Of a stretch of 64,000 bases of DNA, positions 1,503-63,084 are shown in pieces. This stretch comes from Octopus vulgaris (taxonomy: Eukaryota): NCBI GenBank assembly GCA_951406725.2, contig OX597840.1, positions 15,438,001 to 15,502,000 on the forward strand. Reading direction: 5' to 3'. A program made the translations under genes and the position numbers. Numbering within the stretch: position 1 is the stretch's first letter; each line of letters begins with the position of its first letter. Under the pieces are notes generated by a model. That model was not told the DNA's origin, did not search any database, and worked only from the letters and a program-made list of their open reading frames with translations.

Positions 1503-1987
1503 ATACAACTTATAAATAACGGCAAACGAAAAAAATTTTCTAATGCCAAATATGCCGAAAATTGGACATATTATCCATTACCATATAATTTATCACAATA
1601 CGCACACTACTCGAAAAAAGCCAACAAAAATTTCTAAAAAAATCCATTATTACCATATCAGACCGATTTCAGGGTTAGTTTGTAAGTATCTCATTTATTT
1701 CTTTACCACATGTATCACTGACAAAGGGAGGGTTCTTACGAACTAACCCTGAAATTGGTCCAATATGGTAATTATAGAATTTTTTAGAAATTTCTGTCGG
1801 CTTTTTTTCGAGTAGCGTGCATATTGTGATAAATTATATGGTAATGGACAATATGTCCAATTTTCAGCTTATTTGGCATTAGAAATTTTTTTTCGTTTGC
1901 CCTTATTTATAAGTTGTTTATAATTTTAACCTTTAAAGGTATTTTTTAATATGCTGGCCATTGATAAAAATTTTATCGTACATTAAA
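1503..1987 (+). mobile_element. Fold-back insert in (TA)n with hammerhead motif and 3' tail (PLE pLTR-like)
   Basis: Inverted arms ~1503-1692 / ~1728-1922, unpaired tail 1923-1987, (TA)n on both sides. Confidence 0.8.
1713..1770 (+). ncRNA. Type I hammerhead ribozyme motif (core G8A)
   Basis: TATCA-CTGACAA-AGGG(AG GGTTC TTAC GAACT AA)CCCT-GAAA-TTGG T CCAA-TA-TGGTA. All three stems pair. Confidence 0.75.
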
Positions 1988-2711
1988 TATATATATATAT
2001 ATATATTTATATGTATATTACATTAAATGTGTGTTTCTTTGTGTGTGGTATTGGGGTGTATTGCATGTGTACATGAATATTTAAATATTTATTTTTGGTT
2101 CACTTGAACCATTGAGAAATATTTGGAACAGACTGTAGATGCAGCAATCAATAATAGTTCCTTATAATACATCTTATAAAAAACCTTGATGACAGAAACA
2201 AGTGGACAGAATCACCTACTGGTATTGAGCCATATGTTCATCATGCAACTGAATGGCCATGAATGGCTATTACATCAAAGCAACCTGACAACTCTCAACT
2301 GTTGGAATCAGAAATGTCATTTGATTCTTTCGGGTGATTTTGACCACTTTATTCCATTATCAAAGGGGATGCTTTAGCTTTACACAAAGAACGATTATCT
2401 ACAACTCCTTTCATATCGTAGCAGCATATAAAAGGAATCTTTGATATATGTGTGTATGTATATGTGTGTGTTCATGTGTGTATGTGTGTAATATTATTAT
2501 ATGTAATATATAACAGACCAAGATATCTGTGACGTGTTGTACTGAAGAAGAGCCGTCCACCACAGCAGAATTGATACCAGTGCTGGTCCCACATAAAAAA
2601 CACCCAGTACTCTCTGTGGGGTGGTTAGTATTAGGAAGGGCATCCAGCCAAATCAGACAATGGAGCCAGTTGCAGCCCCTGCGCTTACCATCTCCAGTCA
2701 AGCCATCCACC

Positions 2712-3160
2712 CTGGCTGTGTGGTAAGTAGCTTGCTTATGAACCACATGGTTCCGGGTTCAGTCCCACTGCATGGCACCTTGGGTAAGTGTCTTCTACTA
2801 TAGCCTCAGGCCAACCAAAGCCTTGTGAGTGGATTTGGTAGACGGAAACTGAAAGAAGCCCGTCGTATATAGGTATATATATATATATATATATATATAT
2901 ATATATATATATATATATGTATGTATGTATGTGTGTGTGTGTGTGTTGTATTTGTATGTCTGTGTCTGTCCCCCCCACATCGCTTGACAACCGATGCTGG
3001 TGTACTTACGTCCCCACAACTCAGCGGTTCGGCAAAAGAGACCAATAGAATAAGTACTAGGCTTACAAAGAATAAGTCCTGGGGTCGATTTGCTCGACTA
3101 AAGGCAGTGCTCCAGCATGGCCACGGTCAAATGACTGAAACAAGTGAAAAAGTAAAGAGT
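2712..3160 (+). mobile_element. tRNA-derived SINE family A copy with internal (TA)n(TG)n
   Basis: A-box TGGCTGTGTGG, B-box GGTTCAGTCCC, CCTTGGG(C/T)AAGTG motif, 3' end GTGCTCCAGCATGGCC..GTCAAATGACTGAAAC. About 20 copies occur in the window. Confidence 0.85.
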
Positions 3161-3213
3161 ATATATATATATATATATATATATATATATATATATATAT
3201 ATATATATATACA

Positions 3214-3565
3214 TATAATCAAAAATAAGCAACAAGAATGACTCCGGTGATTTGGTACAATTGTTTCGTACTACAACATTTTATTAAAAGCTGTAAGTAT
3301 TACAGCAGATTTAAGATGCTGAGTACTCTTCAGCCAATTTATATAGGTTTTCCAATAATATAAAAGCTTTAAGGACGAATACATATGGCTATTACTACTT
3401 GATTTGAAAGCTGTACAAAACAATTGTACCAAATCACCAGAGTCATTCTTGTTGCTTATTTTGATTATAATCACCCTGCAAATTTTTATGGGTAACACCA
3501 TACAAAATTCTGGTGCATCTAAATTAAATACCATATTCATTTGCATCTAAATTGTTGCTGATCTT
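3214..3565. mobile_element. Fold-back insert in (TA)n with hammerhead motif and tail (PLE pLTR-like)
   Basis: Arms 3214-3271 / 3413-3469, tail 3470-3565, TA-rich flanks. Confidence 0.8.
3252..3337 (-). ncRNA. Type I hammerhead ribozyme with intact core
   Basis: Minus strand: TTGG-CTGAAGA-GTACT(large structured loop)AGTAC-GAAA-CAATTG-TA-CCAA. Stem III is the palindrome ACAATTGT. Confidence 0.85.
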
Positions 3566-3696
3566 ATATATACATATAATAAAATAAATGCTTTACACCT
3601 GGTAGCTTACTGGTAAGGCACGGTCACTTTCAGAGTGATCATTAGGTAAATAACAAATGAAAGACAGAAGATGGAATATACTAGAATATATTATTA

Positions 3697-3797
3697 ATCA
3701 CAATTGTTTTGACACATCTAGTATTGACTCCACTTGTGGGTCACTCAACAATTGGTTCAGGAGTATCTGGTGGTACAGACGTATCTCGTCGGGTGAT
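3697..3797 (-). ncRNA. Hammerhead-like motif (U4C, G12A) in a PLE-like 3' remnant spanning ~3570-3870
   Basis: Minus strand: ATCAC-CCGACGA-GATACGTCT...AGATGTGTC-AAAA-CAA-TT-GTGAT. The 9-bp stem II (with G-U pairs) and the 5-bp stem I both pair. Confidence 0.65.
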
Positions 3798-3890
3798 AAA
3801 TAAATTTTTAAAACTTTCAGTACTTGCTTGGATTGCACAACTACTTGTTTTCAAGTAGGCCATACATGTTTCATAGAATATTGGAAATGA

Positions 3891-61326: not shown

Positions 61327-61560
61327 GGGCGGCAAACTGGCAGAATTGTTAGCACGCTGGGCAAAATGCTTAGCAGGATTTTGCCTGCCATTAGGTTCTG
61401 AGTTCAAATTCTGCCGAGGTTGACCTTGCCTTTCATCCTTTCAGGGTCGATTAAATAAGTACCAGTTACACACTGGGATCGATGTAATCGACTTAATCTC
61501 TTTGTCTGTCCTTGTTTGTCCCCTCTTTGTTTAGCCCCCTGTGGGCAATGAAGAAATAAG
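61327..61560 (+). mobile_element. SINE family B copy nested in an RTE 3' end
   Basis: Flanked by duplicated gtatggacaacaga (TSD-like). Confidence 0.8.
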
Positions 61561-62121
61561 TATGGACAACAGATAGTGAATGATGATGATGATGTTGATA
61601 AATATTTGCATCAGATAAAAGAGAGAGGCTTGTAAGTATGGGCATCTTCCAGTCTTCTGTAAAAGATGTTGCTCAGGCTATCACACATGTGACACTCTGT
61701 TGGTAACAACAACGAGGGTTCCAGTTGATCTGATCAATGGAACAGCCTGCTCGTGAAATTAACGTGCAAGTGGCTGAGCATTCCACTGACATGTGTACCC
61801 TTAATGTAGTTTTCGGGGGAGATTCAGCATGATACAGTGTATGAAAGGCTGGCTCTTTGAAATACAGGGACAAGAGAACCAGGAAGAAAAAGTGAGAGAA
61901 AGTTGTGGTGAAAGATTACAGCAGGGTTCCACCACCCCCTGCCAGAGCCTTTTGGTGTTTTCACTCAATAAACACTCACAATGCCTGGTCTGGGAATCGA
62001 AACTGCAATCTTATGACCACAAGTCCACTGCCCTAACCACTGGGCCATTGCGCCTCCACTACACACATGTACAGCTACACAGTCATGCTAAGCTAACAGA
62101 AGCCCTCTATACAAGCATGAG

Positions 62122-62342
62122 TATGAGGGGAGTGCTGAAAAGTATCTTGCTTTAAGGGTATCATGAATGGCCTGGTTGGAGGCCCAACCTTCTGAGTCCT
62201 TGCACAGGGTTTTCAAAATCTGAAGGACCACTGCAATAAGTATGTGAATCTAAGAAGGTAATATGTTGAATATAATCATAATTAACTGATGCTGCTGTAT
62301 TTTCTTTTATCCAAAGTCAGGAAGTTTATTAGCACCCTATCA
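62122..62342 (+). mobile_element. mariner-derived MITE (further copies 63105-63320 and 63458-63600)
   Basis: Termini GAGGGG.TGCTGAAAAGT.. / ..AGGAACTTTT.AGCACCC. The internal sequence resembles the mariner C-terminus (CNKYVNLRREYVE). Confidence 0.7.
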
Positions 62343-62391
62343 AATATATGTGTGTGTGTATATATATATATATATATATATATATATATAT

Positions 62392-62758
62392 ATTACGTTA
62401 TATAATTAGGGTTCAGTAAAATAATTTACTTTACCACACACCGAACTTTTAGAAATAGCAGCCAAAAAATTCTTTTAGCTATTTCTTCTACTATAAGAAA
62501 AGTCTCCCAAACAATGTATACTCAAAAATTATTTTTGAGTATACATTGTCTGGGAGACTTTTCTTATAGTAGAAGAAATAGCTAAACTTTTTGGCTGCTA
62601 TTTCTAAAAGTTCGGTGTGTGGTAAAGTAAATTATTTTACTGAACCCTAATTATATAACGTAATGTTTTAAATATACCGTAAATGGTCTTTTTACATACT
62701 GAACACTACTTGGTAAAATTAATTAATAATTAATTAATTTTACCCTTTTATTATTGAC
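62392..62758 (+). mobile_element. Near-perfect fold-back insert in (TA)n with structured tail
   Basis: Arms 62392-62529 / 62531-62664. Tail 62665-62758 contains a 16-bp hairpin at 62712-62744. Confidence 0.85.
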
Positions 62759-62782
62759 TATATATATATATATATATATATA

Positions 62783-63084
62783 TATTAGAAGATTTGGAGA
62801 TGATGTCCAGGTATTATATATTAGAAGAAATGAGGTACTCAGAAATGTGGATGGTTTTATATTTACAGATATTTATTAGTATGTTACATGTTTTTATATA
62901 TCATATGTCATATATTAGTGCTTTCGTCCACTCTAGTGGAGTTATCCAATTTGAAAACTCCACTAGAGTGGACGAAAGCACTAATATATGACATATGATA
63001 TATAAAAACATGTAACATACTAATAAATATCTGTAAATATAAAACCATCCAGATTTCTGAGTACCTCATTTCTTCTAATATATA
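62783..63084. mobile_element. Near-perfect fold-back insert in (TA)n with a hammerhead-like centre
   Basis: Arms 62815-62943 / 62956-63084 (1 mismatch seen), tail 62783-62814. Centre reads TTGAAAA-CTCCAC TAGA GTGGAC-GAAA-GCAC-TA. Confidence 0.8.

Follow-up and report, generated by a model that had tools for sequence, protein, structure and literature searches.

Two kinds of hammerhead-bearing retroelement have been described in animals. In any one animal genome minimal hammerheads number in the thousands, most of them solitary and derived from truncated Penelope-like elements (PLEs), with opposite-strand hammerhead pairs 100-700 bp apart, an extra base before helix II and a U3-A8 core variant among the reported forms (PMC4209133). 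Animal retrozymes are defined in PMC7229834 and in bioRxiv 10.64898/2026.07.22.740005; PLEs have been proposed as their helpers on the basis of shared traits, co-occurrence and phylogeny, and PMC8969392 also states that retrozymes may rely on PLEs. Here we analyze a stretch of 64,000 nt from Octopus vulgaris (contig OX597840.1, positions 15,438,001 to 15,502,000; hereafter the window, with positions counted from its first letter), in which an initial annotation had described a dispersed system of hammerhead-bearing fold-back inserts, lacking open reading frames (ORFs), in (TA)n microsatellites.

The architecture of PLE insertions provides the frame for this comparison. An inverted arm, a 30-40 bp tail often present at one end only, TA targeting and head-to-tail non-autonomous Chlamys elements are all described in PMC8557442, which reports that octopus Naiad and Hydra families prefer (TA)n, includes in its supplement a TA-targeting hammerhead Hydra PLE of Octopus bimaculoides, and defines the Hydra clade by a CxCX5C linker and CxxC/CxH motifs around the E and N residues. 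According to PMC3846280 the tail lies on one inverted pseudo-long terminal repeat (pLTR), and the pLTR acts in trans. A lizard Poseidon PLE protein, a predicted dimer that uses uncleaved RNA, cuts and extends both target strands, starting at two sites inside the RNA between which the tail lies (PMC11167929). For O. vulgaris itself, PMC13282606 lists 31 recently active Penelope-like families, and its accessible text makes no mention of ribozymes. The Hydra PLE of O. bimaculoides, these 31 families and the hammerheads of truncated PLEs together weaken the earlier description of the inserts as a mostly unannotated population.

The octopus inserts are members of the two known kinds, PLE ends and retrozyme-like passengers, rather than one new system; what is new is their common footprint and the rule that governs their ends. 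We consider it highly probable that they comprise truncated 3′ ends of PLEs and ORF-less hammerhead monomers that have one footprint in common, all likely written by PLE enzymes priming twice per insertion. The initial suggestion of PLE ends and/or non-autonomous RNAs is borne out on both counts, with seven families linked to PLE ORFs and five ORF-less tandem monomers. The window holds 17 inserts belonging to 16 high-copy families, labeled A to P, with F present twice:

Family A, 1500..1985 (+): fold-back with arms 1508-1914, a decayed hammerhead at 1713-1770, an 87-nt tail at the right and (TA)n on both sides; ORF-less 477-nt monomer family.
Family B, 3213..3565 (-): fold-back with arms 3222-3462, an intact type I hammerhead at 3252-3337 (59-nt helix II region) on the tail-less arm and a 96-nt tail on the arm opposite the hammerhead; 3′ end of a Hydra-type PLE.
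Family C, 3572..3806 (-): truncated 3′ end of a Hydra-type PLE with a decayed hammerhead at 3697-3799, whose core is CCGANGA in copies.
Family D, 4251..4512 (+): fold-back with arms 4254-4429 and an 88-nt tail; hammerhead upstream in longer copies; ORF-less monomer of ~478 nt.
Family E, 4733..5000 (-): truncated 3′ end of a Hydra-type PLE with a decayed hammerhead at 4840-4900.
Family F, copy 1, 5221..5860 (-): truncated 3′ end of a Hydra-type PLE with a decayed hammerhead at 5438-5495.
Family G, 23201..23577 (+): fold-back with arms 23236-23576, a decayed hammerhead at 23478-23523 and a left-arm tail at 23201-23235; 3′ end of a Penelope/Poseidon-type PLE, not TA-targeted.
Family F, copy 2, 45824..46096 (-): fold-back with arms 45956-46096 and a tail at 45824-45955, truncated before the hammerhead.
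Family H, 46347..46556 (+): fold-back with arms 46347-46497 and a 55-nt tail (46498-46556); U3-A8 hammerhead upstream in longer copies; not TA-targeted.
Family I, 46871..47118 (+): old fold-back with arms 46873-47052, a tail of ~45-60 nt and (TA)n on both sides; its ~285-nt monomer contains a tRNA-like part but lacks a convincing hammerhead.
Family J, 47484..47655 (-): short insert with a minimal hammerhead at 47565-47599; related to N.
Family K, 47681..48015 (+): tail-less arm with an inverted tail stub (47681-47702) at its 5′ end, a hammerhead from 47806 with a CCGATGA core and (TA)n on both sides; ORF-less 352-nt monomer family.
Family L, 48324..48473 (-): short 3′ end of a Neptune-type PLE with a minimal hammerhead at 48415-48450 (CTGTAGA core).
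Family M, 51722..52407 (-): AT-rich 3′ end with a hammerhead core at ~52090-52175 and a weak helix I; more than 1 kb of non-coding sequence upstream in copies.
Family N, 57049..57258 (+): insert of ~220 nt with a minimal hammerhead at 57121-57155, (TA)n at the 3′ end and a hard 5′ limit in copies.
Family O, 62392..62759 (+): fold-back with arms 62394-62662, a 99-nt tail and (TA)n on both sides; hammerhead upstream in longer copies; ORF-less 563-nt monomer family.
Family P, 62786..63084 (.): perfect fold-back centered at 62949/62950 with arms 62821-63078, a U3-A8 core from 62951 and a 33-nt left-arm tail; 3′ end of a Neptune-type PLE.

Fold-backs were detected by reading the sequence and by an inverted-repeat search on the masked window, which returned 12 shorter than 700 nt against 0-1 in three shuffles, and they are present at all nine positions where the initial annotation had placed them. 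The two described there as lacking a clear tail, at 23236 and 46350, do carry one (families G and H). The view that the families are largely unrelated in sequence holds: only the motif regions at 47565 (J) and 57121 (N) align clearly, at 77%. Copies were collected from the genome (2.8 Gb, 227 contigs), where a first look gave 1,130-3,738 candidates for each family except I (67) and 20-30 loci per family were kept.

The ends of the copies show a regularity. Two alternative 3′ ends, 33-140 nt apart, form a bimodal distribution in 12 of the 13 families tried, and also in K (46 nt); no tail was seen in J, L or N. Among 167 fold-backs, 102 have both ends classifiable, and 95 of these pair one tailed with one tail-less end, the others having two tailed (6) or two tail-less ends (1), whereas independent ends would yield at most half as mixed pairs (binomial p 4e-21). 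The same pairing appears in 26 of 29 cases with queries that end before the tail (A, B, O). When short inverted stubs are included, a tail-less arm has a tailed partner in 30/34 cases and a tailed arm a tail-less partner in 54/58 (84/92 overall); 146 copies showed no partner within 900 nt, and control flanks gave 3 matches in 247. An additional family, of 359 nt, was queried with one complete unit; in each of the 20 loci for which both arms were listed, one arm ends at unit position 208-213 and its partner at 252-258 (hand count; 14 matches lay outside those listed). Either arm, tailed or tail-less, may be the longer one.

Seven families (B, C, E, F, G, L and P) run, in longer copies, 5′ into PLE reverse transcriptase (RT) and/or GIY-YIG coding sequence. 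The description of the inserts as ORF-less is thus correct for the window, within which no PLE protein match was found, and wrong for these seven families; extension in the 5′ direction reaches PLE ORFs and not DNA transposases, as the initial annotation had anticipated. Longer copies of family B contain RT and, 580 nt ahead of the hammerhead, an endonuclease at the C-terminus that bears CxCX5C and CxxC motifs; compared by eye, the B protein follows the Hydra rows of the alignment in the supplement of PMC8557442. Having been read successively as Naiad-like and Nematis-like, the family was assigned to Hydra because of the C-terminal position of the endonuclease and the CxCX5C motif. An endonuclease of this type is also present upstream of families C, E and F, in C and E without RT; among the Hydra motifs CxCX5C occurs in B and F, CxxC in B and C, and a CxH-type motif in C, where the upstream walk ended in a nested element. 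The Hydra-type copies retrieved are truncated short of the RWK and DKT motifs of that clade. Longer copies of G reach the RT thumb and a GIY-YIG domain without a linker finger, indicating a Penelope/Poseidon type, and the CX4-5CxxC linker marks as Neptune type both P (two loci) and L (locus L489; the RT thumb is also present in L491). In each of the seven linked families the ORF ends, at its 3′ side, with the endonuclease, unlike in the Naiad clade, where the endonuclease is N-terminal and a canonical hammerhead is absent.

Whole elements are present as well. A genome search with GIY-YIG gave 6,136 candidates, and many of the 150 scored contain an unbroken 781-aa frame. One locus, L391, is a whole PLE between (TA)n arrays, with 456-nt pLTRs, 99% identical, around a 781-aa RT and GIY-YIG ORF; another, L398, has an inverted arm of 766 nt that is 100% identical. 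Pfam recognizes GIY-YIG and RVT_1 on both, and L391 carries the CX2-5CxxC linker that precedes a C-terminal GIY-YIG in the Neptune clade. Partial pLTR tandems and 5′-truncated inverted arms, as expected of endonuclease-bearing PLEs, are likewise present. Because these whole PLEs show the footprint, it is one that PLEs make in this genome. The young Neptune-type family L391-L394 (e.g. G000:C16:20834500-20843500) combines pLTRs that are 99-100% identical with a U3-A8 hammerhead and 3′ ends in (TA)n; many of its copies retain the unbroken 781-aa frame, and upstream lies an overlapping ORF (333-479 aa) to which Pfam assigned no clear domain.

Three features of these PLEs may be recorded separately. 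The Hydra-type ORF of family B (L472:4254-5612) contains a long Asn-rich insert between RT and endonuclease, comparable to that of rotifer Penelopes (PMC3846280). Locus L287 (oriented 100-850) has an endonuclease end and hammerhead that, by eye, closely resemble Hydra-1_Obim in the supplement of PMC8557442. The 3′ untranslated region (UTR) of family G (L010, L015, L021; window 23330-23428) contains, before the hammerhead, a tRNA-like stretch with A- and B-box-like motifs, identified by reading, followed by (AAT)n(AAC)n; Rfam gave no match to it, none of 10 loci of families G and I contains a tRNA according to ARAGORN, and many G copies truncate nearby.

In five window families (A, D, K, O and I) the sequence met on the 5′ side is instead another copy of the family's 3′ end, giving head-to-tail, ORF-less repeats of 285-563 nt with a longest ATG frame of 33-66 aa per unit. 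The period is 477 nt in A (12/30 loci), 352 nt in K (16/20), ~478 nt in D (8/20), 563 nt in O (5/20, range 400-630) and ~285 nt in I (2/20), with shorter periods in some of the loci counted. The 359-nt family, a sixth ORF-less one obtained from a random-genome sample, is young and carries a textbook hammerhead in each unit; it has two short stretches in common with family K and is dispersed over ~40 loci among the matches listed, at 88-98% identity, with tandem units 97-99% identical. At L411:2097-4768 (G000:C1:20002097-20004768) it forms 5.6 tandem units and an inverted arm of 1.8 units between (TA)n arrays. Families A, D, K, O and the 359-nt family have the sequence layout of retrozymes, tandem units of 150-600 nt that each carry a single type I hammerhead and no ORF; family I is not filed with them because it lacks the hammerhead. 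Folded as circles, five of the six units are more stable than shuffles (z -2.7 to -8.4), and family I is not (+2.3). Units within the young insertions L479 and L411 are non-identical, their variants being distributed as a mosaic. The monomer of family I, with an Rfam tRNA match at E 0.0013, below the gathering score, shows the tandem, inverted and tailed structure without a clear hammerhead (window 46871-47118; L255, L259, L247) and is a candidate PLE-driven short interspersed element (SINE). Since the lopsided footprint of these small, protein-free hammerhead repeats is that of the PLE ends, they likely borrow the Penelope enzyme to spread.

The window contains 135 arrays of (TA)4 or longer, and 400 kb sampled at random from the genome contain 576; with arrays so frequent, any claim of TA targeting needs a background. 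At the 3′ end, such an array is found in 74/110 copies of ORF-less families and 111/140 Hydra and Neptune copies, compared with 4% of random positions; over 11 families together, (TA)n adjoins 185/250 copies, and in family M 14/20. The placement of the inserts mostly in or beside (TA)n is sustained for 11 of the 17 window inserts, which touch (TA)4 or longer, but not for the families at 23236 (G, of Poseidon type, 2/30 copies) and 46350 (H, 3/20), so TA targeting is not common to all families. Both alternative 3′ ends abut (TA)n, tandem junctions between units contain no TA array, and scattered 5′ ends often adjoin TA (13/30 in A, 13/30 in B); for these reasons (TA)n is most probably a target and not an element tail.

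Hammerheads were sought with a strict type I descriptor and with a relaxed one that tolerates an extra base before helix II, a long helix II and known or CpG-type core changes. Strict descriptors recover 0-1 true motifs, the one accepted in the window being that at 3252; the relaxed descriptor accepts 4 of the 12 motifs named in the initial annotation, against 0-2 in 20 shuffles. In the random-genome sample (400 kb in 40 stretches from contigs 1-13, the smaller chromosomes left out) it finds 26 motifs, 7 of them from one array, against 1-4 in 10 shuffles, an excess that agrees with the initial expectation and points to the order of 100,000 intact-looking motifs genome-wide. Independent support comes from helix III, which is self-complementary beyond the two required pairs at 21/27 inner positions, versus 30/95 in shuffle matches. 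All 12 named positions proved correct; at each, taking the most frequent letter column by column over 19-29 genomic copies yields the hammerhead core. Most of the window copies are nevertheless decayed by private damage, and the motif at 52086 (family M) has a helix I of only 2 bp. The inserts at 4254, 45825, 46350 and 62392 have no hammerhead in the window, theirs being found upstream in longer copies, and copies of family I (46873) have no convincing one. Core variants are fixed family-wide (CCGANGA in C and K, CTGTAGA in L, TTGANAA in H and P), and the Hydra-type hammerheads have long helix II inserts of about 30-75 nt. U3-A8 is in print (PMC4209133), and the U4C and A6U variants were not met in the literature accessible to our search. 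An Rfam scan of the window returned no hammerhead family among the matches listed (150 of 291), which were mostly microsatellite-driven microRNA matches; as Rfam is also blind to the textbook hammerhead of L411, it is no test for these motifs.

The hammerhead does often lie at or near the fold-back axis, as initially noted, although a special link between the two is not borne out. Truncation points of the 359-nt family are scattered, with 4 of the 43 listed falling within 8 nt of the cleavage site where ~2 are expected (hand count), and the hammerhead therefore does not set the axis; its position there looks like a by-product of its distance from the 3′ end.

Several other repeats of the window fall outside this set. 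Inverted pairs of common SINE copies (9630-10200, 14686-15910, 18009-19437 and 40808-41652) were considered and set aside from the fold-back system. An imperfect hairpin of 136 nt at 53100-53235, with TA at both ends and no tail, is possibly a miniature inverted-repeat transposable element (MITE). Two broken ORFs of long interspersed elements (LINEs) occur, one at 11482-13958 (-) with endonuclease and RT, which we take to be RTE-like, and one at 57686-59336 (+) with RT and a C-terminal part, presumably CR1/L2-like.

Under the mechanism we propose, a PLE RT-endonuclease would bind a tandem RNA that has not been cleaved, close to two start sites within it that are separated by 33-140 nt, and would nick both target strands, Hydra- and Neptune-type enzymes choosing (TA)n and the Poseidon type not. 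One nick would prime at the downstream site, giving the tailed arm, and the other at the upstream site, giving the tail-less arm; the two complementary DNAs would stop at variable lengths and be joined head to head. The product would be a fold-back tailed on one side only; where one of the arms is short, it would look like a plain truncated copy bearing an inverted stub. The 285-563-nt monomers without an ORF would retain the hammerhead and the start-site module and be copied in trans. The hammerheads would then be passengers of that module, and their palindromic helix III predicts cleavage only as dimers.

Four other explanations were weighed against this one. According to the scheme proposed for classical retrozymes (PMC7229834), the hammerhead excises a monomer that is circularized and copied repeatedly by a PLE RT, giving tandem arms. 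Monomer sizes that fit published retrozymes, the favorable circular folds of five of the six units and the occurrence of up to 5.6 units within one arm all speak for it, and it is compatible with PLE mobilization, only the template being different. A single circle would not, however, yield the differing, mosaic units of one young insertion (L479, L411) unless later conversion had mixed them, and truncation points are not clustered at the cleavage site (4/43), so that, judging from these sequences, a single circular template appears to fit less well than a multimer; we regard the circle as an unlikely but serious candidate. Snap-back or self-priming, in which one arm is reverse-transcribed, the second is copied from it and a nuclease cut sets the tail, would account for the perfect palindromic junction at 62949/62950. 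Since either class of arm may be several-fold longer than its partner, and since long tail-less arms can carry a tail-only stub on their 5′ side (window 47681), neither arm is always the template of the other, and we consider this explanation rather improbable.

A derivation from LINE machinery, with (TA)n as an element-encoded tail and the inserts as SINE-like passengers, could appeal to the LINE RT fragments of the window, to the short N and J with their hard 5′ limits and to the tRNA-like part of family I. Both alternative 3′ ends and many scattered 5′ ends (13/30 in A, 13/30 in B) abut TA, tandem junctions contain no TA array and seven families run into PLE ORFs, all of which make it very improbable. 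That the fold-backs are MITEs, DNA transposons with terminal inverted repeats, and their hammerhead motifs due to chance, is extremely improbable: TA is a common MITE target and the hairpin at 53100-53235 may be such an element, but the fixed, symmetric terminal inverted repeats of a MITE are absent, arm lengths and centers varying among copies and ends being asymmetric, and the motifs exceed those of shuffles in number (26 vs 1-4) and in the palindromy of helix III beyond what the search demands (21/27 vs 30/95).

Several points weigh against double priming by PLE enzymes as the common origin of the inserts. For each family the 20-30 copies used are those most similar to the window copy and not a random sample; 65 of the 167 fold-backs have an unclassed end, and several family queries contained the tail, which fixes one end. 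TA adjacency is only partial in D (8/20), F (9/20), I (7/20) and J (9/20), and the PLE clade labels follow motifs, with no tree. Families H, J, M and N were placed neither with PLE ORFs nor with the monomers. A helper search over 59 loci (GIY-YIG matches and ORF-linked copies) found no pLTR matching the monomer units, only separate neighboring insertions. In several families the fixed core changes U4C and A6U, together with mismatches at the base of helix II or I, may denote dead ribozymes. Antisense self-priming is in print for rotifer Penelopes (PMC3846280), and among the matching records listed, contigs only, none is on record as RNA. Contigs from four runs guessed to be RNA contain related sequence and a go-back joint that genomic tandems explain equally well, and they are not used as evidence.

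As to the unplaced families, a walk upstream of H crossed ~650 nt of non-coding sequence with no ORF in 5 loci. Copies of N and J have a hard 5′ limit beside (TA)n, with 0/20 extending more than 20-25 nt past the query, while other families truncate at scattered points; the two are possibly a microsatellite-bounded non-autonomous unit. The endonuclease genes in the vicinity of N (L287), I (L408) and M (L409) belong to separate insertions.

Taken with these reservations, origin by double priming of PLE enzymes would have consequences beyond this window. The footprint directly supports, at the genomic level, both the mobilization of retrozymes by PLEs and the coupling of priming at two sites. 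The mover of animal retrozymes has so far been argued from co-occurrence and sequence kinship; it can now be tested in one animal, where a young monomer family with units 97-99% identical and a PLE-specific footprint coexists with many copies of an unbroken 781-aa PLE ORF. The near-strict pairing of tailed and tail-less ends limits models for the PLE inverted arm and one-sided tail. As regards annotation, many short octopus repeats liable to be classed as SINEs, MITEs or unknown repeats represent the ends of PLEs or their passengers. A bolder formulation, to which we give somewhat less than an even chance, is that every PLE-type insertion uses each internal start site exactly once, one per nicked strand, as a dimer would, and that octopus genomes carry a large ecosystem of protein-free parasites, the hammerhead monomers and an older tRNA-promoter monomer, devoid of a hammerhead, acting as a PLE-driven SINE. 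If true, the footprints would be the first direct proof of animal retrozyme insertion by PLE enzymes from multimeric RNA, not single circles.

Compared with known systems, families A, D, K, O and the 359-nt family resemble metazoan non-LTR (long terminal repeat) retrozymes (Cervera and de la Pena 2020, PMC7229834; Li et al. 2026, bioRxiv 10.64898/2026.07.22.740005) in being well self-paired tandem monomers of a few hundred nucleotides, with low GC and one type I hammerhead per unit. Unlike printed retrozymes they occur as dispersed short arrays with an inverted arm, a one-sided tail and a (TA)n target; the word "inverted" is absent from the accessible text of PMC7229834, and "tail" from that of the preprint. 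Our search found no paper that reports an inverted arm, tail and TA target on retrozymes or counts end pairing, although most subscription papers, Repbase and preprint supplements lay outside it and absence is not established. Chlamys non-autonomous elements such as MRC1 (PMC8557442) are also ORF-less PLE passengers with head-to-tail multicopy insertions, but they are green-algal, mostly lack hammerheads and are 3′-similar to autonomous partners, no such partner having been found for the octopus monomers. Families P, L and G are like Neptune and Penelope/Poseidon PLEs (PMC8557442; PMC11167929; PMC3846280) in their RT and GIY-YIG ORF, pLTRs, one-sided tail and minimal type I hammerheads, U3-A8 included, with Neptune-type copies in (TA)n and Poseidon-type copies not; they depart from those in print by the 333-479-aa upstream overlapping ORF of the young Neptune-type family, the tRNA-like 3′-UTR stretch of G and the strict end pairing counted here. 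Families B, C, E and F agree with the endonuclease-bearing (EN+) Hydra-clade PLEs (Craig et al. 2021, PMC8557442; Hydra-1_Obim) in their C-terminal GIY-YIG, CxCX5C linker and CxxC/CxH motifs, and in the near-3′ hammerhead, (TA)n target, 5′ truncation, inverted arm and tail. Unlike the printed Hydra elements, those of the octopus comprise at least four further families in one genome, with helix II inserts of ~30-75 nt and tails of 59-140 nt versus 30-40.

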